Positions 1-41,068 of a DNA stretch of 47,935 bases are shown one piece after another (within the stretch, counting starts at the first letter, position 1; every line of letters begins with the position of its first letter). Made by a program: the position numbers and the translations under genes. This stretch comes from a virus: UHGV virus genome UHGV-0184477. One strand, given 5' to 3'. The notes under the pieces were generated by a model. The model was not told where the DNA came from and ran no database searches. It saw nothing but the letters and a program-made list of their open reading frames with translations.

Positions 1-13
1 TTGGGGGTTATCA

Positions 14-831
14 TGGCTGTCAGGTACGAAATAAACACAACTCCGGATGACGGAGAGATTTTGCTTAGCGAAACCATGTCAGCAGACTGGACTGCATTGC
101 AGGTGCAGATTGTGCCATTAAACTCTTCCGGCGGCTATGAGCCATTAACAAGCGGCTCTGTTTCCGTAATGGTATCGCCGTTTGCATCTGGTGATTTCTG
201 GATTGACGTCAACAACAATAATTATTATGGCGTGGCATTGCGACTGAAGGTGATCAAGTCACAGCTTCCTGCTGGCGTTGCATCCCTGAAAGTCCTGGTG
301 TGGCGAGCCGATACATCAGTGCCATCAAGTCAGGTTGTCGCGCAGTCCTACTCTGAGCTTGCCAACAAGCAAGGGAAGTTATTCACCGCATCGCGCCGCG
401 TGACCGATGTTGCTGGCGGGGCTAACCTTGACAGCATTTTTATTACCGGCTCAAAACAGGTCGTTTTTAATCAGCGCATCATTGGTTACACCGGCAAAGG
501 TGTCGTAGCGTCAATCTACCGTGGAGCCGTAGCCACTGGCGGCACCGCTGCGGAGATTAATAACCCAAATGATATCGCGCCGCATACTGCAACAGCGCAG
601 CTTCTTACTGGCTCTACGGTTACAAGTATCGGCCAGCTGACGGTGGCCGCGACGTATAGTGAAGGGAACGCATCAAACCAGGGGCAGGGTAATTCGCAGG
701 CAAAACTCGGTGAACAGGTCATCATGGCGCCTAATACCACCTATCTGTTGCGCATTACGTCACTGGATACTGCGGCACAAAATATCAATGCTTACGTTTC
801 GTGGTTTGAGGATGACGCTTATCTTCCGTGA
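14..831 (+). CDS. Hypothetical protein (272 aa), first gene after the capsid module, possibly virion-associated
   Basis: ATG at 14 preceded by a GGGGG Shine-Dalgarno sequence. The ORF continues across the window edge from a TTG at 1. Position between the capsid and connector genes. I recognise no motifs. Confidence 0.45.
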
Positions 832-860
832 TAAAAGAAAAGCCCCGAAAGGGGCTTTGT

Positions 861-1190
861 TTACTTATGGTCGCGAATTTGAATGAGATTATCAATCAGC
901 CGCTGGATTGCGGCGTTATCTTTAAATGTGATGTAAATTTCAGGATCATCAGTATCATTAATTTTATCGCCGGGAATGCCTCGATTTATGCTATTCGCAA
1001 AAGCTATTAACTTTTCACCATGGCAATAGCCAGCTGTAATGCCGACGTAACCATCGCCAAGATGGGCAACTTTTGAGCCATCATTCTGAGTAAAAACGCC
1101 ATTCTTTTTCATCACTAAATCCTCATCGGAATAACTGCTATTTTTTGTTCTTGATGTAATGTTGCTTTGCGATATACAGCATCTCATCAA
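861..1190 (-). CDS. Hypothetical protein (up to 109 aa; start uncertain)
   Basis: Minus-strand ORF in a co-oriented cluster downstream of the ParB-like gene. No recognisable motifs. Confidence 0.3.
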   Translation of the reverse strand: MMRCCISQSNITSRTKNSSYSDEDLVMKKNGVFTQNDGSKVAHLGDGYVGITAGYCHGEKLIAFANSINRGIPGDKINDTDDPEIYITFKDNAAIQRLIDNLIQIRDHK

Positions 1191-1338
1191 ATGATTTTCC
1201 GGTAACGCTTCGGCATTGTCGATAGTGTTGTAACGCAGCCTCTATAGCCGCGTTGTCGATGCCTGGCAGTTTTTCGCGCAGGTTTTTCTCTATGAATTGT
1301 TCGGGTTTCATTACCAACTCTCCACCACATTTGCGCAT
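1138..1338 (-). CDS. Hypothetical small protein (66 aa)
   Basis: Minus ORF tightly packed with its neighbours. Confidence 0.35.
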   Translation of the reverse strand: MRKCGGELVMKPEQFIEKNLREKLPGIDNAAIEAALQHYRQCRSVTGKSFDEMLYIAKQHYIKNKK

Positions 1339-1508
1339 TCATCATAAAATAAGAAATGCCTTGTTTTTTCTTCGTAACGCTTCATTTCAAATGCGATTAT
1401 GTCCTCCTGATAGTGAATTTTCTCCACCTGGCGAGCCACGCCGTCTCGCATTAGGATGTGATCGCCTTCTTTTATGTTTTTTGCAACAGTGCCAATTGTA
1501 ATCATCAC
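1311..1508 (-). CDS. Hypothetical small protein (65 aa)
   Basis: Minus ORF. Its start overlaps the ParB-like gene stop (ATGA-type coupling). Confidence 0.35.
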   Translation of the reverse strand: MMITIGTVAKNIKEGDHILMRDGVARQVEKIHYQEDIIAFEMKRYEEKTRHFLFYDECANVVESW

Positions 1509-2320
1509 AGCTTCTCCAGAATCGCCAGCACTTCATTCAGTTCAGCAGAGGGAAGGCGCAAAAATTCTTCTGTTTCCTGTGCCACGTGACCCTCAGCAAC
1601 AACCATGTGATCTGCTTCTTTCAGCAACTGAATCAGGCGGTCAATCGGCTTAACTTTTTTGGCCTTGAGCGTTTTCGCCGTCACCTTATCTTTGCCCTGC
1701 GCTTTCGCTTCCTCAACAGCAGCATCAATAACGTTAACGGCATCATCGCCATGCTCACGTGCGACTGCAACGGCGTTGGCATAGCTGATTTGGCCTGCAT
1801 TGATGCGTTGCTTGATAGCATCAGGCACATCACCAAGTGACAGATGCATCTGCACATCAGAAACTGAGCGGCCTACTTTTTTGGCGATTTCTTCATTCGT
1901 CCATCCGAACCCCTTCAGGCGCACATAAGCCTTTGCACGCTCAAGCGGGTCGAGTTGCTTACCCTGACTGGATGACACCATGAAGGCGATTTTATCCGCT
2001 TCATCGCCGGTGAAGTCTTTGCACTCAATGCGCACAATTGGTACGCCGCGCTCAATGGCGCGCAGTGCGCCAAGATAACGATGCTGGCCGTCAAGAATCT
2101 TGATTCTCTTTCCGTCAGCATCAGGAATAACAGTTAACGCCGGGATTGGTTGGCCTGATTCCCAGCACTGCGCGAAGTATTCAACGTGCTGCTCATCGGC
2201 TTCGCGGATGTTGTATCCCGGCTCAAGATAAAGCTGATCGACAGGAACCTGATAACCTTTGTTGACCACGATTCCGCCGCGAGTTTCTTTGTCTGAGTAA
2301 ATTTTTCCGAGAGATGTCAT
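1505..2320 (-). CDS. ParB-like nuclease-domain protein with C-terminal HTH (271 aa)
   Basis: N-terminal ILDGQHRYLGALRA segment matches the ParB/Srx (ParBc) arginine-containing box, followed by a ParB-type HTH (EEIAKKVGRSVSDVQMHLSL). Start refined to the ATG at 2320, which has a GAGGAAAAG Shine-Dalgarno sequence (MTSLGKIY...). Confidence 0.7.
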   Translation of the reverse strand: MTSLGKIYSDKETRGGIVVNKGYQVPVDQLYLEPGYNIREADEQHVEYFAQCWESGQPIPALTVIPDADGKRIKILDGQHRYLGALRAIERGVPIVRIECKDFTGDEADKIAFMVSSSQGKQLDPLERAKAYVRLKGFGWTNEEIAKKVGRSVSDVQMHLSLGDVPDAIKQRINAGQISYANAVAVAREHGDDAVNVIDAAVEEAKAQGKDKVTAKTLKAKKVKPIDRLIQLLKEADHMVVAEGHVAQETEEFLRLPSAELNEVLAILEKL

Positions 2321-2327
2321 CTTTTCC

Positions 2328-2444
2328 TCACTTTGATAAACAGATTGCACTGGCAATAGCGAATCCGATAACAATTAATGCCAGCTTGATTTTGAACTTG
2401 CCCCACGCCTTCAGGTCTTCTTTTCGGATTTCGTGGCGGATCAT
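2328..2444 (-). CDS. Small single-TM membrane protein (38 aa), not in the ORF track
   Basis: ATG at 2444 with a GGAG Shine-Dalgarno sequence 8 nt upstream. Translates to MIRHEIRKEDLKAWGKFKIKLALIVIGFAIASAICLSK and ends 8 nt before the ParB-like start. Confidence 0.35.
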   Translation of the reverse strand: MIRHEIRKEDLKAWGKFKIKLALIVIGFAIASAICLSK

Positions 2445-2722
2445 TGTGATTCTCCATTCTGAAAAATTCCACCAAACTCCTCAACAAGCTCATCAATGAC
2501 CTCATCAGCTTCCGCACTCATACCGGCAGCTGATAGCAAAATGTCAACGACCTCCTCATCTGGCACTTCAATTGCTGACATAAATTCAACGATGCATAAT
2601 TTAACAGCCTGATATTCTTGCTCATGGAGGCAGTTTGCAAGGCTGCATGAAACGGCGGCAATCAGTTTTGCCTTATCTTCTGCTTGGTTGTCTACATCAA
2701 ACATCTTCATCACCCCTAACAT
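2441..2722 (-). CDS. Acidic hypothetical protein (93 aa)
   Basis: Minus ORF. AGGGGTGA Shine-Dalgarno sequence near its start. Highly acidic C-terminus (DEVIDELVEEF). Confidence 0.45.
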   Translation of the reverse strand: MLGVMKMFDVDNQAEDKAKLIAAVSCSLANCLHEQEYQAVKLCIVEFMSAIEVPDEEVVDILLSAAGMSAEADEVIDELVEEFGGIFQNGESQ

Positions 2723-2743
2723 TTATTGTTGTTTCTACGTCAT

Positions 2744-2772
2744 CACTATAGCGACACCCTCAATCTACGTCA
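2744..2772 (-). promoter_or_regulatory. Leftward sigma70-like promoter TTGACG-17-TATAGT carrying the GTAGATT motif
   Basis: On the minus strand: TTGACG (2772-2767), a 17-nt spacer beginning TAGATTG, then TATAGT (2749-2744). A conserved 12-mer TTATGATAAAAT lies at 2777-2788. Confidence 0.55.
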
Positions 2773-2934
2773 ACACTTTATGATAAAATTAAACCAACAA
2801 CACTCAACCCGCGCTGTTCCGTCCTGAAAAACGTAAGGCGGCGAAATTGGATATAGCAATCGGCGTTATCGTCATGGCGCTTTCGCTGGTTCAGGTGTAC
2901 AGATGCTGGAAGTTCATCATTCGGAGAATAATTA

Positions 2935-3222
2935 ATGAGAGACGCGCTTCAGCACGCCGCAAACCAGATAATTAGTGGCACTGTCGGCCAGGTAATCGAC
3001 AAAGCCGGTTATACCTCCATCGGCACGGGTCTTGGCCTGAAGGTGGCAGAGCAGACGCCGGTCGCACAATCATACATTGCCTCAATGATCCCCCATTCGA
3101 TTACCGAGTGGGCAGCGGTAGCCTCTATACTTGGCGCGCTGTCACTGGTGGCAAAAAACCTTTTTGAGATGTGGTGGAAGATTCGGGAGAGCAAAAAGAA
3201 TGGCAGCACCGACAGCAAGTGA
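2935..3222 (+). CDS. Small membrane protein (95 aa)
   Basis: GGAGAATAATTA-ATG Shine-Dalgarno arrangement. Hydrophobic segment WAAVASILGALSLVA. Confidence 0.45.
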   Translation: MRDALQHAANQIISGTVGQVIDKAGYTSIGTGLGLKVAEQTPVAQSYIASMIPHSITEWAAVASILGALSLVAKNLFEMWWKIRESKKNGSTDSK

Positions 3223-3592
3223 ACTTGTCGCCGCCATGGCGTCAAGAGGCGTGACTATCACCACAGCAGACGCAACGGGAATCCTGTGTCTGGTGGCGAG
3301 CATCACAGAGTGTCTTGAGCTTAATTACCCTGAAGACACATGTAGGCAGGATGCAATTCTGCTATGGGCCTCAATCCTTATCGCCTCAAATACAGCCGGA
3401 AGATACATAACCAGCCACCGGGCGCCATCTGGTGCGTCGCAGTCATTTGGCTATGGCAGTAAGCCGTGGATGGCCCTTTACAATCAGATGAAGCTACTCG
3501 ATACGGCAGACTGCACAGGCGACCTTGTGGAAGAGCCTGATGGGGCAGCAAAGCCGTGGTTTCGTGTTGTCACCGGGAGTAAGTGCAGATGA
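3200..3592 (+). CDS. Putative head-tail connector / DNA-packaging adaptor (130 aa)
   Basis: Start refined to the ATG at 3200, which has a GGGAGAG Shine-Dalgarno sequence. Position and size fit a gp6-like connector. Weak call, not based on motifs. Confidence 0.35.
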   Translation: MAAPTASELVAAMASRGVTITTADATGILCLVASITECLELNYPEDTCRQDAILLWASILIASNTAGRYITSHRAPSGASQSFGYGSKPWMALYNQMKLLDTADCTGDLVEEPDGAAKPWFRVVTGSKCR

Positions 3593-3710
3593 AAACGTCA
3601 ACATTAACTGTAAATATCGCAATCCGTAAATGGTGCATGCCGCTGCTGGTTATTCTGGTATTGCTGCGCCTTCCTGTTCCGCGCTGGATTTATACTCTTG
3701 AGGCCGCACC

Positions 3711-4055
3711 ATGTCAGCGATAGCGAGATGGAGCTATACGCAGCCATGCACAATCTGGCGGCTTACTGGCAAGGATAAGTATGGCAAGCCAACATTCGCC
3801 GCGCCAGAGCCCATCATGTGTGATTATGGCTTCGATAAGAATCTGACCACCGGCACAGCTGGCAATGAGATTGCACAGAAAAACACATTCTGGACGGAAT
3901 ACCAGGATGCGTCTGTTGGCGACTTCATCATGCTTGGCACCATTACCAGTGCTGACCCGCTGGCCGCTGGAGCTGACCAGATTAGAAACGTCGTGAATTA
4001 CGGCAATACGCTAGACCGCAACGACCTGCCTGATTTTGCGCTGGTAACGGGGTAA
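3711..4055 (+). CDS. Putative head-closure / head-tail joining protein (114 aa)
   Basis: Size and position in the connector gene series. Loose resemblance to head-closure family proteins. Confidence 0.4.
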   Translation: MSAIARWSYTQPCTIWRLTGKDKYGKPTFAAPEPIMCDYGFDKNLTTGTAGNEIAQKNTFWTEYQDASVGDFIMLGTITSADPLAAGADQIRNVVNYGNTLDRNDLPDFALVTG

Positions 4056-4132
4056 TGCATGAGCAGAAGAGAGAGCCTTTTAAGATGCGCGCAGCTTAAT
4101 CTTGACTTAATGAGATTAGGCATTGAACCCAT

Positions 4133-4576
4133 TTGGCAACTGCACTACTGGATAAAATAATGGCCGCCAAAATGCGAGGTATCCAGCAGGCGATTAAGCG
4201 CACCCAGCAGATAGTCGGTGAGATTACTGGCGAGAAGGCGGTATCAGCAATAAAAGCCGCCAACTATATCATCAGGACTGAATCGGCTTCCATGACGCCA
4301 GTAGCTACATCGGTGCTGATAAACAGCCAGTATGATACTGTTGAGGTTAATGGCACTCGCATAACTGGCAAGATTGGGTATGCAGCTAATTATGCCCTGT
4401 ATGTCCACAATGCACCAGGTAAACTGCTGGGTACGAACACGCCACGCACAGGGAGACTCAAAGGAAAGGGTAACGTGTGGGATAAAAGCGGCGAGCCTAA
4501 ATTCCTTCTCAAGGCTGGCGAAAACACACGCGAGCTTGTCGATCAGGTAATTAAAAAAGAGATGACGCTAAAATGA
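4133..4576 (+). CDS. HK97 gp10-like neck/tail-component protein (147 aa)
   Basis: Position after the head-closure gene. Size and composition typical of the gp10 family. Confidence 0.45.
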   Translation: MATALLDKIMAAKMRGIQQAIKRTQQIVGEITGEKAVSAIKAANYIIRTESASMTPVATSVLINSQYDTVEVNGTRITGKIGYAANYALYVHNAPGKLLGTNTPRTGRLKGKGNVWDKSGEPKFLLKAGENTRELVDQVIKKEMTLK

Positions 4577-4956
4577 GAGATATGCTTGAGCTTGTTGACC
4601 AGTACCTTAGCGATGCCGGTCTTTATGATGGGTGGACTTCTCAGCTTGAGTTCTGGAACGATACCGAAGTTGGCACCGATCGGTTTATGGTGCTGCAATC
4701 CAATGGCGGTACGAACGTAAGCAAAGACCTCAGCAATGATTATTATTTTTCGCTCTACGTTGTCGGACAGCAGGGCCAGTACAACATCGAGGAGACAAAA
4801 GCAAAAGCGCTTGATGTCATCGCATACATCAAGGAGCATCCAGTTGATAGTTGTATTGGCATGATTCAGTTGCAGGCGCCGCTTGGTCGCCCTACGCTTA
4901 CGACAGAGAAAAGGCCTGTTTATGAGTTGTTGCTGAGGGTTGTTTTTGGTGAATAG
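4573..4956 (+). CDS. Putative tail terminator / tail-completion protein (127 aa)
   Basis: ATGA overlap with the previous gene. It is the last connector gene before the major tail gene. Confidence 0.4.
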   Translation: MRDMLELVDQYLSDAGLYDGWTSQLEFWNDTEVGTDRFMVLQSNGGTNVSKDLSNDYYFSLYVVGQQGQYNIEETKAKALDVIAYIKEHPVDSCIGMIQLQAPLGRPTLTTEKRPVYELLLRVVFGE

Positions 4957-4982
4957 AAAAGGCCGCTGATGAGCGGCTTTTA
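4957..4982. terminator. Bidirectional rho-independent terminator
   Basis: AAAAGGCCGCTGATGAGCGGCTTTT hairpin with flanking A/T runs, between converging genes. Confidence 0.7.
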
Positions 4983-5165
4983 GTAGTCATTACTACATAA
5001 TAAATAATCAATGGCATCGCCAAGATATTCGAATCGGGCATCATATCGCCCATTAGCATTTGCGACAACATACCACTTCCCGACCTTTGATATACCAGCA
5101 ATCCTGCTGTTATTTTTGTCAGCTATGCGCCAGTAATCATCGTGGATTTTTTGGATTTGTATCAT
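4980..5165 (-). CDS. Hypothetical antisense small protein (61 aa) within the connector/tail region
   Basis: Start refined to the ATG at 5165 (MIQIQKIHDDYWRIADK...), which has a GGTGAG Shine-Dalgarno sequence. The ORF ends at the bidirectional terminator. Confidence 0.35.
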   Translation of the reverse strand: MIQIQKIHDDYWRIADKNNSRIAGISKVGKWYVVANANGRYDARFEYLGDAIDYLLCSNDY

Positions 5166-5624
5166 TGCGCTCACCGAATATGGTTCCCGCGACAGGATTC
5201 GAATTATTGTTGTGGCCCTGGTGCCTCCAGGTTGCTGGTCGGTAAATCCAGCAGGCATACCCACAAAAGGAGCATATTTCTACCTTGCCACGTGCGCATA
5301 GCCGCATTACCACAACGGAAAGAGCACTCCAGGACTTACCACACGTACTTTTGCGCATAGGTCGTCACCAGTGCGGGCGTGTCCCCTGAAGCTACCTGAC
5401 AATGCTCTTACCTGTTGTGTGCCCATTATTAATCACACCGGGCCAGTGCGCCGAATTCATTGACAAGGAGTCGGAAGACCTTGCTGGTGTTTGGCCGTTA
5501 GGCTACTGCCAGATACATTTCTTCGTTTGCATTTATCTTTGTGGTCAGTTTCTAAAAACCCGCAAAGTCGCTTACGAAAACTATCTGCCATTTAATCTAC
5601 ACCACCAATAAAAACCTGTCAACA

Positions 5625-5667
5625 TGATATAATGCGATTGTTTAGCTAAACAGAGAGGATTCTAAAC
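5625..5667 (+). promoter_or_regulatory. Extended -10 promoter (TGATATAAT) and RBS for the major tail gene
   Basis: TGATATAAT at 5625-5633 is an exact extended -10. An AGAGAGGA Shine-Dalgarno sequence sits 8 nt before the ATG at 5668. It lies at the end of a ~400 bp apparently non-coding stretch. Confidence 0.5.
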
Positions 5668-6423
5668 ATGGCTATTTGTGCAAATGATAACGGCATCATC
5701 ACAGGTCGCCAGTCGCTCATCGAGCTGGCTGATGGCTGCTGGGATGCTGTGCCAGCAGAGGAAGACTGGAAGTTTTTTGCTCCCATGACCTCAAAAGGCG
5801 TCGACTTCAGCCCAAGCACCACTACCTCAGAGGCTGATGATGGCGATGGCTTTGTCGCAACGCTGGTCACTACCGCAGACCTCACCATTTCCGGTGATTT
5901 TGAAGTTCGCAAGGCTGACAAGGCTGATGAGTATGGCGTGCATAACCTCATCAAATACTTTGTAACCGAAGTAAAAGCTCGTCGCCAGCCGTCACTGTGG
6001 GTTCGCCAGACCACTGGTAATACCGTTGTCGTTGCTTACTGCAACATTACCGCACTGAGCTACGATGGCGGCACCAATGACATCATCACCGGCTCGGTTG
6101 AATTTAAGCCGTATGATGGCTCTACCGTTGACGTGTCGAGCATCGAAGATTTGACGCTGACCACTGATATCAGTGCAACCAAAAGCGTTGCTACTGGCGC
6201 CACTCTGACGCTCGGCCCGGTAGTTGCAGCTGGCGGTGTCGAGCCTTATACCTACCAATGGTATAAAGGCACTTCGCCGATCAGCAGTGCTACTACCGAC
6301 ACGTTCACCAAGGACGATGCTGCCGCAGGTGATGCTGGTACGTACTTCTGCCGCGTGATGGATTCGGCAACCAGTCCTGATTACGTTGACTCCACCAAGT
6401 GTGTTGTTACCGTCACGCAATAA
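5668..6423 (+). CDS. Major tail protein with C-terminal Ig-like (Big_2-type) domain (251 aa)
   Basis: The C-terminal ~80 aa (TLTLGPVVAAGGVEPYTYQWYKG...GTYFCRVMDSATS...VTVTQ) is a classic bacterial Ig-like domain, as in lambda gpV-type tail tube proteins. Strong promoter and RBS, and a position ahead of the chaperone and tape measure genes. Confidence 0.7.
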   Translation: MAICANDNGIITGRQSLIELADGCWDAVPAEEDWKFFAPMTSKGVDFSPSTTTSEADDGDGFVATLVTTADLTISGDFEVRKADKADEYGVHNLIKYFVTEVKARRQPSLWVRQTTGNTVVVAYCNITALSYDGGTNDIITGSVEFKPYDGSTVDVSSIEDLTLTTDISATKSVATGATLTLGPVVAAGGVEPYTYQWYKGTSPISSATTDTFTKDDAAAGDAGTYFCRVMDSATSPDYVDSTKCVVTVTQ

Positions 6424-6451
6424 AAAAACCCCCGAAAGGGGGTTTATTTTA
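6424..6451. terminator. Bidirectional rho-independent terminator
   Basis: AAAAAACCCCCGAAAGGGGGTTTATTTT. Confidence 0.85.
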
Positions 6452-6665
6452 ATGTCCAGCTAATATTATTGAGGAAGAAATCGCTACGAACTCTTTTTAC
6501 TAATCCTCGCTTTTCCATATCCTTTAATTTCCTCAGCACTGATGGCGTATCTATTCCTTTATACGTGTAAGAGAGCAGATTTCTAACGTAATATGTAGGT
6601 TCACCATTGCGCATTTTACCAAGGCACTTCAAAACATCATAATCCTGAATAAGCGCTATTCTCAT
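6444..6665 (-). CDS. Small putative winged-helix DNA-binding protein (73 aa)
   Basis: Segment DTPSVLRKLKDMEKRGLVKRV resembles a wHTH recognition helix and wing. Last gene of a four-gene antisense operon. Confidence 0.4.
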   Translation of the reverse strand: MRIALIQDYDVLKCLGKMRNGEPTYYVRNLLSYTYKGIDTPSVLRKLKDMEKRGLVKRVRSDFFLNNISWTLK

Positions 6666-6815
6666 GCTTTCCTCGTCTTGTTCTTAATGCCCCACAAAAT
6701 AAGATTAGCAATAAACTCAGAGCGCCTCAGGTGAATTGCTATCGCGTAGCTTATGTCGATGCGCTGTCCTGCATATGCAGATATCACATCTTCATCGTCT
6801 TTGTTAACTGGCATT
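6663..6815 (-). CDS. Small ORF (50 aa), not in the ORF track
   Basis: ATG at 6815 with a GGAG Shine-Dalgarno sequence 8 nt upstream. Its stop overlaps the next start (ATGA). Confidence 0.3.
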
Positions 6816-7151
6816 TTTGGACTCCTGCATTTTCAGGAAAACTATCATTGCAGCTCGGAGTGGGTTGTCATTAAAGTGATATGACTCATTGAGGTAAAAT
6901 GCTTCTGCTCCCCAACGGCCTCTACCATCATTTTCGCTCATTGCGTAAATGCTTATTTTATTTGCGGTGATTATCGTCCATGCATCTGCCGGGTTTTTAC
7001 ATGGGTTAAAAGCATGCCAATTCGCGCCGTCACCCCAATGCACAGCCATATCATTATATGGGAGTCTTGATATGCAGTCGTAGTCGACCACAATCTCTGC
7101 AACACGCAAATTAATCTCAAAATCACTCATCTTGCTGTAATCAGTGCTCAT
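6804..7151 (-). CDS. DUF2591-like phage protein (115 aa)
   Basis: LRVAEIV...HWGDG...W..P...AW.I pattern is reminiscent of DUF2591 phage proteins. ATGA coupling on both sides. Confidence 0.4.
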   Translation of the reverse strand: MSTDYSKMSDFEINLRVAEIVVDYDCISRLPYNDMAVHWGDGANWHAFNPCKNPADAWTIITANKISIYAMSENDGRGRWGAEAFYLNESYHFNDNPLRAAMIVFLKMQESKNAS

Positions 7152-7282
7152 CTCTTATCCTCCACCACTACGCCAATCTTCGCCAGCAACAAAATCGCCT
7201 TTACACGGGCCTCTTCATAGGTGTAACCCTGGTCAATGTAAAGGTCGATGTAAAATCTCAAATCAGCATCAGTCTCGTTCAT
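7148..7282 (-). CDS. Small ORF (44 aa), not in the ORF track
   Basis: ATG at 7282 (MNETDADLRFYIDLY...). Its TGA overlaps the ATG of the 115-aa gene. First gene of the antisense operon. Confidence 0.3.
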   Translation of the reverse strand: MNETDADLRFYIDLYIDQGYTYEEARVKAILLLAKIGVVVEDKR

Positions 7283-7295
7283 ATGTCAAACCCTC

Positions 7296-7351
7296 AATCA
7301 CCTTATGCTTTCAATCTACGTCAGTCTTGCGCCACCTGTCAATGGTATAAT
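7296..7351. promoter_or_regulatory. Divergent promoter region: leftward CTGACGTAGATTG motif and rightward extended -10 TGGTATAAT
   Basis: Motif copy at 7312-7324 and a second TACGTCA at 7352-7358. On the plus strand, TGGTATAAT at 7343-7351 lies upstream of the chaperone/tape-measure operon start at 7380. Confidence 0.5.
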
Positions 7352-7379
7352 TACGTCATTGTGAAAACAGGATTTAGAC

Positions 7380-8087
7380 ATGAGACAACGCACACCGCTA
7401 ACAGAAATAGGAGAGATGCGCATCTCCCTGGATGACAAGTCTTTTTTCTTCAAACCATCATTTGCGGCGATGAATGAGCTTGGCTCACCGAAAGAGATTG
7501 TCGAGCTGTACGCTACGCTTAATGGGTATGAATACGCTGCCATACTCGGCGCCATTCAGTCAATGCCGTATGGCGCGCAGATTCAGATTGCAAAAATCCT
7601 GTCACGTCCTGTTTATGGCAAGAAAGTGCTCAGCGCCGCCTGTCTCATCATGCAGTCTTGTTGCGATGATGATATCTCGGTGCTCATTGGATCATGGAAG
7701 CCGACTCCGCGCGGTGTTAAGTACGTCACCGGACGAATGCCAGTAAATGACATTATTATTATTGCTCGAAACCTGATGGATCATGGCATCATCGGCAAGT
7801 CTCCGCTCAAGGTTCCTCAGCGCTCGGAAAACCAAAAGCGCACAACCAGTGAGTTGAGAATGTCGGATTACATCATCTCTGCTCGCACTCATTTCGGAAT
7901 CACCCGCGAGGAAGCCGAAGACCTGACCATGACCGAGTATCAGCAGATGATAAAATCAAAATACCCGGAACCGGAAGGCATGACGCGCGAGCAGTATGAT
8001 GCGTCTTATGAGCGGGCTAAGCTGAATAAACAGAAAATGAAAGAGAAAGCCGCCAGAAAGGCCGCTAAAAGCAAAGGAGCAAAATAA
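7380..8087 (+). CDS. Putative tail assembly chaperone (235 aa; possible G/GT-type frameshift arrangement)
   Basis: Immediately upstream of the tape measure gene. A second overlapping frame (7474-7746) is present. The C-terminus is lysine-rich. Call is positional. Confidence 0.45.
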   Translation: MRQRTPLTEIGEMRISLDDKSFFFKPSFAAMNELGSPKEIVELYATLNGYEYAAILGAIQSMPYGAQIQIAKILSRPVYGKKVLSAACLIMQSCCDDDISVLIGSWKPTPRGVKYVTGRMPVNDIIIIARNLMDHGIIGKSPLKVPQRSENQKRTTSELRMSDYIISARTHFGITREEAEDLTMTEYQQMIKSKYPEPEGMTREQYDASYERAKLNKQKMKEKAARKAAKSKGAK

Positions 8088-26786: not shown

Positions 26787-26815
26787 TTGACGTAGATTGC
26801 TATGCATTGTATAGT
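26787..26815 (+). promoter_or_regulatory. Rightward early promoter TTGACG-17-TATAGT carrying the TAGATTG motif
   Basis: TTGACG at 26787-26792, a 17-nt spacer starting TAGATTG, then TATAGT at 26810-26815. The first early ORF starts ~30 nt downstream. Confidence 0.6.
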
Positions 26816-40067: not shown

Positions 40068-40093
40068 AAAAGCCCCGTAAGGGGCTTTGTTTT
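40066..40093. terminator. Bidirectional rho-independent terminator
   Basis: AAAAAAGCCCCGTAAGGGGCTTTGTTTT. Confidence 0.85.
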
Positions 40094-41019: not shown

Positions 41020-41068
41020 TTGACTAATCTACGTCAATTAGTCAATACTAGGTGTTGTAGATTATAAC
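41020..41068. promoter_or_regulatory. Palindromic operator-like site TTGACTAAT-CTACGTCA-ATTAGTCAA within a divergent promoter region
   Basis: Perfect 9-bp inverted-repeat arms (41020-41028 and 41037-41045) flank the CTACGTCA core. A TATAAC -10-like box at 41063-41068 lies ahead of the HNH-AP2 gene. Confidence 0.5.

Follow-up and report, generated by a model that had tools for sequence, protein, structure and literature searches.

An accessory operon with exchangeable small genes and an orphan ParB-like protein in a Klebsiella siphophage genome

Known relatives of the protein treated here are the chromosomal ParB/Spo0J and Noc proteins and KorB of plasmid RK2. Dimers of ParB and KorB bind palindromes, which are parS sites for ParB and OB for KorB. 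For phages, it has been reported that DNA thymidine dioxygenases require ParB-like proteins for their activation (bioRxiv 10.1101/2025.08.14.668559), that ParB-methyltransferase fusions are enriched and that orphan ParB folds bind CTP, ATP or GTP (PMC12704722), and ParB-like genes have been noted with unknown function in lambdoid early-right operons (PMC12315714). Here we present an analysis of an orphan ParB-like protein of 271 amino acids (aa), which is encoded at 1505..2320 on the minus strand of the virus genome UHGV-0184477 (47,935 nucleotides; this whole stretch is called the window). With its 47.9 kb, it represents the whole or nearly the whole genome of a Klebsiella siphophage, and it has been compared with its Klebsiella/Roufvirus-like group and with Salmonella-type relatives, whose ParB-like protein is 81% identical. 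The explanation that we favour, with middling confidence, is that the gene belongs to an exchange-hotspot operon and that its product serves as a DNA-bound platform or adaptor. In the literature, no functional study on this ParB subfamily or on this cassette was found.

It is well supported that the six leftward genes form a self-contained accessory operon, which runs from a promoter at 2773 to a terminator at 839 and is transcribed by the host RNA polymerase. The genes, all on the minus strand, encode an acidic 87-aa protein (2441..2704), a 38-aa membrane peptide (2328..2444), the ParB-like protein, a 64-aa protein (p64, 1311..1505), a basic 57-aa protein (p57, 1138..1311) and an 83-aa protein (p83, 861..1112). 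The sigma-70-type promoter (2745..2773, minus strand), found by a consensus scan and by conservation, consists of a -35 element TTGACG at 2773-2768, which lies within the conserved 12-mer TTGACGTAGATT, a 17-nt spacer and a -10 element TATAGT at 2750-2745. Both this promoter and a six-gene leftward cluster under its control had been described in the initial annotation, and all of the open reading frames (ORFs) were recovered on the minus strand; the promoter coordinates, given there as 2744-2772, were one base off. The promoter scored 10/12 in the consensus scan, and three such matches were found in the region versus 3.9 expected, so a single match is not above chance. We take the promoter as real because it is conserved and not because of the scan score: in every Klebsiella-group relative it is kept, and its distance to the divergently oriented gene of a membrane protein does not vary, and the Salmonella-type relatives have a promoter of the same architecture.

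A second copy of the motif TGACGTAG (2735..2742, minus strand) is located 30 nt downstream of the first, just past the -10 element and approximately at the transcription start. This copy is conserved in nearly all Klebsiella-group loci and in the Salmonella-type loci, and it may serve as an operator or be a conserved stretch at the start of the transcript. It is followed by a conserved 5'-untranslated region (5'-UTR) and ribosome-binding site (GAAACAACAATAAATGTTAGGGGTGATGAAG; 2705..2734, minus strand), which are unchanged whatever first gene comes next. At the other end, the bidirectional intrinsic terminator AAAGCCCCGAAAGGGGCTTT (839..858) is shared with the convergent upstream late gene and conserved across all groups. 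Between promoter and terminator the six ORFs overlap or follow each other nearly without gaps, and one-nucleotide stop/start overlaps join the ParB-like gene to p64, where the ATG shares one base with the ParB TGA, and p64 to p57. An Rfam scan of positions 1-8000 gave no match within the cassette.

As judged from its predicted structure and profile matches, the 271-aa protein has the full N-domain/HTH/C-domain architecture of ParB, KorB and Noc, in which a ParB/Srx N-domain with the sequence DGQHR is followed by a helix-turn-helix (HTH) region of the HTH_ParB/KorB type and a small C-terminal beta-beta-alpha domain. The Pfam families HTH_ParB (PF17762; 43.4 bits, cutoff 22.6) and KorB (PF08535; 27.8 bits, cutoff 22.3) were both matched, and in PHROGs the protein belongs to phrog_1033, "ParB-like partition protein" (E 1e-87). 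A phmmer search against the sequences in PDB matched Thermus Spo0J (1vz0, E 6e-12) over residues 41-193, with further matches to Caulobacter and Myxococcus ParB, Noc and KorB (E 1e-4). The AlphaFold 2 (AF2) model, for which 28 homologues were in the alignment, had a predicted local distance difference test score (pLDDT) of 84.9, and Foldseek matched it to Caulobacter ParB-parS (6t1f), Noc (7nfu) and KorB (8qa9) with E about 4e-9 and template modelling (TM) scores up to 0.77 relative to the target for the ParB and Noc matches; the match to sulfiredoxin (6ky4) was weaker (E 2e-3). Profile searches and predicted structure thus agree on the ParB/Srx fold with HTH, on which the initial annotation had staked its reading of the protein. 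Its description as a "ParB-like nuclease-domain" protein has to be given up: the Pfam ParBc family (PF02195), with which it proposed to check the domain, gave no match to the whole protein at E<=0.01 and none to the isolated N-domain even at E<=10, and the full ParB/KorB/Noc architecture was found instead.

The motifs of the N-domain diverge from those of canonical ParB proteins. In the HMMER alignment to Spo0J/ParB, DGQHRYLG falls on GERRYRA and SSSQG falls on ENLQR, and only the second arginine of the GERRxRA patch (R81) is retained in box II. The residues D77, G78, H80 and R81, as well as N37, R39 and S117-S118-Q119-G120, are invariant in the 28 homologues down to 42% identity. DGxHR or DGxxR was found in 127 of 150 subfamily representatives, and GERR, ENxQR and the ParA-binding motif in none of them. 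In ParB CTPases, the arginines retained here are nucleotide-binding positions, and the glutamate and asparagine lost here are hydrolysis positions. The motif pattern suggests that the ParB-like protein may bind a nucleoside triphosphate (NTP) without canonical hydrolysis. Among models of neighbouring families, TIGR00180 (ParB/RepB/Spo0J partition) reached 45.8 bits versus a cutoff of 58.45, the Noc model stayed far below its cutoff, TIGR03187 (DGQHR/DndB-type) reached 17.4 bits versus 58.85 over the motif region only, and DUF262/GmrSD_N matched the N-domain weakly (E 0.011). The weak GmrSD_N and DGQHR matches would place the motif in a non-canonical branch of the fold, and nothing more. The subfamily is large: a profile search of 1.84 billion representatives gave 292 clusters with a cutoff of E<=1e-30, and 2,792 when the cutoff was E<=1e-10.

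Chromosomal ParB/Spo0J and Noc give the best sequence and structure matches and have the same domain order. The window protein differs from them in that no ParA, ParA-binding motif or parS was found and in that the hydrolysis motif is not conserved. With KorB of RK2 it shares a ParB/Srx N-domain followed by an HTH, a KorB Pfam match above the cutoff and a top-tier structural match (8qa8/8qa9); both also work outside a simple parAB pair, and the repeated short motif at several promoters of the window invites the analogy. However, DGQHRYLG in box II and SSSQG in box III stand in place of the arginine patch and ENLQR, no KorA-like partner or palindromic operator was found here, the sequence similarity is weak (E 1e-4), and a virulent phage is compared with a plasmid. 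The ParB-like genes in lambdoid prophages of Enterobacterales chromosomes belong to the same subfamily (37-52% identity, with the same DGxHR/SSSQG) and occupy the order cI-type repressor (S24 and HTH_3), CII, ParB-like, replication O (PF04492) and replication P (PF06992). The window gene, in contrast, is no neighbour of replication genes; it has moved to the late region of a virulent phage, where it lies in a promoter-terminator cassette of its own.

The cassette is not peculiar to the window. Klebsiella phage RCIP0071 is 99.5% identical over positions 700-3300, and the same slot of the genome is filled in 168 matching phage records. Relatives include MK54, BUCT541, ZCKP8 and VLCpiS13 phages and the Roufvirus members pYD38-A and pIS4-A, and they have been described as virulent (PMC9901506). 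This accessory operon is conserved among Roufvirus-like Klebsiella phages, is already represented in deposited sequences and is typical for this phage group. Its position inside the structural region, which had first been regarded as unusual, recurs in those 168 records, and four other leftward cassettes in the window have the TTGACGTAGATT type of promoter.

We surveyed 84 loci (80 from viral contigs and four from annotated phages), with the limits of the cassette set by the two flanking structural genes, and drew ordered architectures for the 36 loci that carry both anchor genes; the census of the +1 slot directly after the ParB-like gene covered 67 close relatives. Counts of slot occupants are approximate, since greedy ORF tiling gave artefacts, namely alternative-frame ORFs (C20 and C40), ORFs past the terminator (C13) and, in place of the methyltransferase and the endonuclease VII of the RefSeq annotation, one merged ORF of 458 aa. 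The order of the cassette is promoter/UTR, slot A, 38-aa peptide, ParB-like protein, slot B, p57, a 192-aa protein, slot C and terminator. Its fixed backbone consists of the promoter with 5'-UTR and ribosome-binding site and of the genes for the ParB-like protein and p57; in the Klebsiella lineage, and nowhere else, the 38-aa peptide gene is also part of it. Slot A is usually occupied by a phrog_1273 protein and holds the acidic gene in the window. The gene in slot B, which is p64 in the window, always starts on the ParB stop codon. Its other occupants are, depending on the locus, a C5-methyltransferase (PF00145; as in BUCT541), an N6_N4-methyltransferase (PF01555; as in VLCpiS13f), a methyltransferase-like protein with an endonuclease VII (PF02945) and many small genes, and methyltransferases fill this ParB-coupled slot in about 15 of the 67 loci. 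p57 belongs to phrog_4439 (E 1e-15) and gave tblastn matches in 74 of the 84 tabulated loci, and p83 is the variable last gene, present in a minority of relatives. Searches of the 38-, 64-, 57- and 83-aa proteins against Pfam, NCBIfam, PADLOC and PHROGs gave only phrog_4439 for p57, which has no assigned function.

The promoter, the second TGACGTAG, the 5'-UTR and the ribosome-binding site are conserved between the Klebsiella and Salmonella-type groups regardless of the next gene. Since promoter and UTR are constant up to the first ATG, exchange takes place at the start codon, and the comparison of sequences supports well that the cassette is a gene-exchange hotspot, whose three slots swap small genes precisely at start codons. 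The methyltransferases of the relatives bear on two further suggestions of the initial annotation. Its context of anti-defence or DNA protection is plausible, as the relatives carry C5- and N6/N4-methyltransferases and endonuclease VII directly downstream of the ParB-like gene. The fusion of ParB and methyltransferase that it expected in relatives was not borne out, and we have rejected this reading: methyltransferases at this locus were separate, adjacent and translationally coupled genes in all relatives examined. tblastn searches with these enzymes found no methyltransferase anywhere in the window. Compared with the fusions described from phages (PMC12704722), the association of a ParB fold with N6_N4 methyltransferases is shared, with the methyltransferase coupled after the ParB-like gene in relatives; the window has no methyltransferase, and an HTH and a C-terminal domain replace the enzyme domain.

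In the wider subfamily, too, the gene is recurrently placed before DNA enzymes. Besides the replication genes of the prophages (loci L086-L145), a PAPS-reductase-like enzyme (PF01507) is encoded two genes downstream of the ParB-like gene at one locus (L082), and on other viral contigs a 656-676-aa protein, read as a helicase from its sequence motifs, follows directly. As a separate observation, the +1 gene encodes a ParE-like toxin-domain protein at six loci among L086-L145 and L074-L084. In another relative (L029, IMGVR_UViG_3300045988_072291), a second, highly divergent ParB-like paralogue of 214 aa (MHDFISQQSGEVKYREPFF...) is located just upstream of the resident ParB-like gene (6001-6813), as an insertion that has the gene of the 38-aa peptide on its other side. 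The 192-aa backbone protein is encoded in 50 related loci (e.g. L001 2916-3494, Tbat1_6 gp74) and absent from the window. It is labelled as "RusA-like Holliday junction resolvase" (phrog_3007) or as "DNA polymerase III beta subunit", and a Pfam search did not match it to RusA and linked it only weakly, at E 0.0015, to the central domain of the beta clamp, so the RusA label looks unreliable.

The platform or adaptor explanation that we favour would work as follows. The ParB-like protein would be a DNA-binding protein of the KorB/Noc type, probably a dimer, with its HTH on DNA. Its N-domain, with R81 of the P-motif and R39 of box I, would bind a nucleoside triphosphate and change conformation, and with SSSQG in place of ENLQR the canonical hydrolysis residues would be missing. 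It would act on DNA early in infection, in neither partition nor DNA cleavage, and its most likely role would be that of a DNA-bound platform or adaptor for neighbouring DNA-level functions. In virulent relatives it would partner with methyltransferases or endonuclease VII, in temperate ones with replication O/P or the PAPS-reductase-like enzyme, and the surrounding variable genes, including that of the acidic protein, may be cargo for host takeover or anti-restriction. We infer early expression, NTP-gated DNA binding and the platform role from the features described above, and the idea of an adaptor draws on the precedents of the dioxygenase activators and the ParB-methyltransferase fusions. 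The activators (partners of 5mYOX clade E; bioRxiv 10.1101/2025.08.14.668559) are likewise phage-encoded, ParA-less ParB folds beside a DNA-modifying enzyme. They differ in lacking a DNA-binding domain, whereas the window protein has a strong HTH, and at the present locus there is no dioxygenase and the adjacent enzyme is optional.

Several points weigh against the adaptor role. p64 in the window and most +1 genes in relatives encode small proteins and not recognisable DNA enzymes, and because the ParB-like gene is kept with or without a methyltransferase, the role cannot be specific to methyltransferases. Searches for a binding site by palindromes, repeats and conservation gave no site. The early timing is deduced solely from the type of promoter, and NTP binding is suggested by motif retention, where a 2025 survey of the fold states that specificity is not predictable from sequence or by AlphaFold 3 (PMC12704722). 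The "anti-restriction" label of the acidic protein is without structural backing.

A more specific form of the adaptor idea, which we consider improbable, sees the operon as plug-and-play and the ParB-like protein as its constant docking platform. The protein would be an NTP-locked clamp on phage DNA, devoid of the canonical hydrolysis residues and perhaps placed at the duplicated TGACGTAG, which recruits or activates the coupled +1 product, be it a C5 or N6 methyltransferase, endonuclease VII or a small protein of another kind; swaps of the +1 gene would re-arm the phage against different host defences without a need to evolve DNA targeting anew, and the 38-aa peptide would tether or time the complex at the site of entry. 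If the general adaptor role is true, the activation of phage DNA-modifying enzymes by ParB folds would extend to an HTH-bearing subfamily with hundreds of members (the 292 clusters at E<=1e-30) in phages and prophages of Enterobacterales, and it would explain why methyltransferases are frequently found beside, or fused to, ParB folds. The cassette is also a natural example of start-codon-precise exchange behind a fixed promoter and UTR, which is useful for phage engineering and for mining the slots for anti-defence genes.

The promoter of the cassette is one of a family. The genome has seven occurrences of TGACGTAG versus 0.76 expected, and all of them are at promoter positions. In six, at 26787 on the plus strand and at 2765, 7316, 32819, 38880 and 41029 on the minus strand, the match continues to TTGACGTAGATT and forms a -35 element; the extra copy is at 2735 (minus strand). 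Five of the TTGACGTAGATT copies head small leftward accessory cassettes, and one stands before the long operon in which small genes run rightward. Both the Klebsiella and the Salmonella-type groups have kept the motif, which phages with more distant ParB-like genes lack. Several leftward cassettes end at terminators related to that at 839, and three closely related bidirectional terminators (AAAGCCCCGAAAGGGGCTTT and its variants at 839-858, 6426-6445 and 40069-40088) bound leftward cassettes, which suggests that whole promoter-terminator modules have been duplicated or exchanged. In the genome as a whole, late operons run rightward, and between them lie accessory cassettes that run leftward and share one class of promoter. 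The TTGACGTAGATT copy at 41029 is, in addition, flanked by the inverted repeat TTGACTAAT/ATTAGTCAA.

This promoter family is the basis of a different explanation, in which the ParB-like protein is a KorB-like global regulator that binds TGACGTAG(ATT) at six promoters and at its own transcript start, and shuts off or times the accessory cassettes including its own. The KorB match above the Pfam cutoff, the presence of KorB among the top structural matches and the excess of the motif at promoters argue for it, as do the conservation of the double arrangement (the -35 copy and the copy 30 nt downstream) in Klebsiella and Salmonella-type groups with any first gene and the position of every TGACGTAG copy in related loci on the ParB strand. 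We nevertheless regard it as doubtful. TGACGTAG(ATT) is not palindromic, Pfam and PHROGs revealed no small HTH partner in the cassette, and the motif contains the -35 hexamer, so that its conservation may reflect only a duplicated promoter family. Moreover, the group with 66-68% identity keeps a near-identical recognition region, GRSVSDVQMHLSL, yet lacks the 11-mer (no copies in 164 kb of loci with <79% identity) and has TTGACTnnATCTAC promoters instead. Another regulator could also act, and one relative encodes a MarR-family protein. TGACGTAGATT as the operator of the ParB-like protein was accordingly downgraded to a rival, as the 66-68% group keeps the recognition helix without the motif. 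In a further explanation, the ParB-like protein would itself be an anti-defence effector that coats or marks phage DNA against restriction or SMC-type defences, or titrates a host factor, with the acidic protein as a DNA-mimic anti-restriction partner. The methyltransferases, endonuclease VII and acidic proteins encoded in this hypervariable operon, the net charge of -17 over 87 aa, the PHROG label "anti-restriction" of the acidic protein and the position of its homologue in phage HK446 between N and cIII would all be in keeping with this. It is rather unlikely, as no PADLOC or anti-defence family was matched, the label comes solely from PHROG-derived annotations for a protein structurally unlike Ocr, ArdA, Arn and KlcA (best PDB E 0.37), the acidic gene is missing from most close relatives, and in temperate relatives the ParB subfamily is found in the replication module and not in anti-defence islands.

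Cleavage of DNA by the N-domain, either of host DNA or in recombination and processing, as reported for some ParB/Srx-fold proteins, seems very unlikely to us. DGxHR is typical of the non-canonical ParB/Srx branch that includes the weakly matching DUF262/GmrSD_N and DGQHR/DndB-type families, and cassettes of relatives carry endonuclease VII and the protein named RusA-like in PHROGs; however, ParBc was not matched in Pfam, the closest structures are the DNA-binding clamps ParB, Noc and KorB, and in GmrSD the ParB-like domain acts as the NTPase and cleavage is left to a separate HNH domain (PMC12373910), while the AF2 model of the 271-aa protein contains no separate nuclease domain. Public annotations name the protein "ParB-like partition protein" and the full ParB domain order is present, so segregation of the phage genome in a plasmid-like or pseudolysogenic state was also considered, in line with the partition-like role mentioned in the initial annotation. 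Such a role is scarcely credible and was rejected: no ParA, integrase or repressor is found among the 96 annotated genes of the relative Tbat1_6, the ParA-binding motif [LFI]G[KR]G[LFI] is absent here and in 150 of 150 subfamily representatives, TIGR00180 is below its cutoff, and the relatives are reported as virulent (PMC9901506). Searches for parS by genome-wide perfect palindromes, direct repeats, palindromic k-mers shared between lineages and imperfect cassette palindromes checked for conservation gave no candidate and only terminators emerged, although a divergent or non-palindromic site would escape them.

Upstream of the ParB-like gene, the ORF of the 38-aa peptide has GGAG 7 nt before its ATG, and this start overlaps the stop of the acidic gene by 4 nt (ATGA). 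The peptide has a basic N-terminus and one C-terminal transmembrane helix, with a hydropathy peak of 2.59 at residues 21-37. Because the ORF is intact in all of the 34+ Klebsiella-group loci and because a divergent allele (MIRHEIRKEDQKGWLKFKIQLAVIVISVAVISFYCLSK) keeps length, charged N-terminus and hydrophobic helix despite many substitutions, we regard it as a genuine gene for a predicted single-transmembrane peptide. Both the peptide and its Shine-Dalgarno sequence are present as first annotated. It was found in 48 phage records, all of the Klebsiella/Roufvirus-like group, and in RCIP0071 and RefSeq relatives this ORF carries the annotation "hypothetical protein". Its pairing with the ParB-like protein, initially thought unusual, is a lineage-specific feature of the Klebsiella phages, as the Salmonella-type relatives lack the peptide.

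The acidic protein (isoelectric point 4.05) belongs to phrog_14587 (E 5e-34). It had been annotated as an acidic protein of 93 aa; its acidity stands, and its length is corrected to 87 aa, since 14 of 15 homologues have 83-89 aa and 11 of 15 exactly 87, and the additional residues of the longer call come from translation of the conserved 5'-UTR. First-ATG ORF callers over-extend the first cassette gene through the UTR (2705-2722) systematically in this phage group, producing prefixes such as "MLGVMK" and "MLEVM.M". The AF2 model (pLDDT 84.6) is a compact four-helix bundle. No PDB sequence was matched at E<=10, the Foldseek search of PDB showed no likeness to Ocr, ArdA, Arn or KlcA, and only its own uncharacterised family was found in the viral structure library BFVD. 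Like Ocr, ArdA and Arn, the protein is small and very acidic, and it comes first in the operon with an "anti-restriction" name in PHROGs, whereas its predicted bundle resembles the solved anti-restriction proteins in neither sequence nor structure. The name is an unverified database label. As slot A occupant, the gene is limited to the window, RCIP0071 and VLCpiS13f and to some of the Salmonella-type phages, and the family as a whole comprises 117 phage records, mostly from Salmonella phages. A 39%-identical homologue is gp36 of Escherichia phage HK446 (L146 3501-3749), in the lambdoid early-left operon between N and cIII, where lambda carries ral. This slot probably explains the "anti-restriction" name of phrog_14587, and by analogy the placement would fit immediate-early expression.

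Outside the cassette, a tmRNA-like structured RNA was noticed on the minus strand at about 5400-5622, with a core at about 5587-5400 and a tag frame at about 5531-5499. It is preceded by a strong promoter-like site of the sigma-70 type (TTGACA-17-TAGATT, 5622-5594). The core was found in 782 phage records from four very different groups, namely Ackermannviridae, Schitoviridae, Ounavirinae and the group of the window, usually in tRNA clusters and unannotated, and no paper describing it was found in the literature. An invariant AUAAAU is followed by a start-codon-less frame of ten codons and UAA, and the tag in the window is ANEEMYLAVA. In 31 filtered copies there are 12 distinct tags, all of the form AN[DE]xxxL[AM][AV]A, with variation at wobble positions; this pattern resembles the enterobacterial tmRNA tag ANDENYALAA. 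RNAalifold found compensatory changes in 13 of 28 consensus pairs, Rfam gave only a sub-threshold match to tmRNA_permuted (24.9 versus 47 bits), and ARAGORN detected no tRNA-like domain in the RNA. ARAGORN also found no intact tRNA in the window. At about 5181-5203 on the minus strand, where relatives carry tRNA-Met, tRNA-Arg or tRNA-Ser, TTCGAATCCTGTCGCGGGAACCA is the 3' remnant of a tRNA gene and aligns to the edge of the tRNA-Met gene that BUCT541 has in this slot, which marks a recombination junction inside a tRNA gene.

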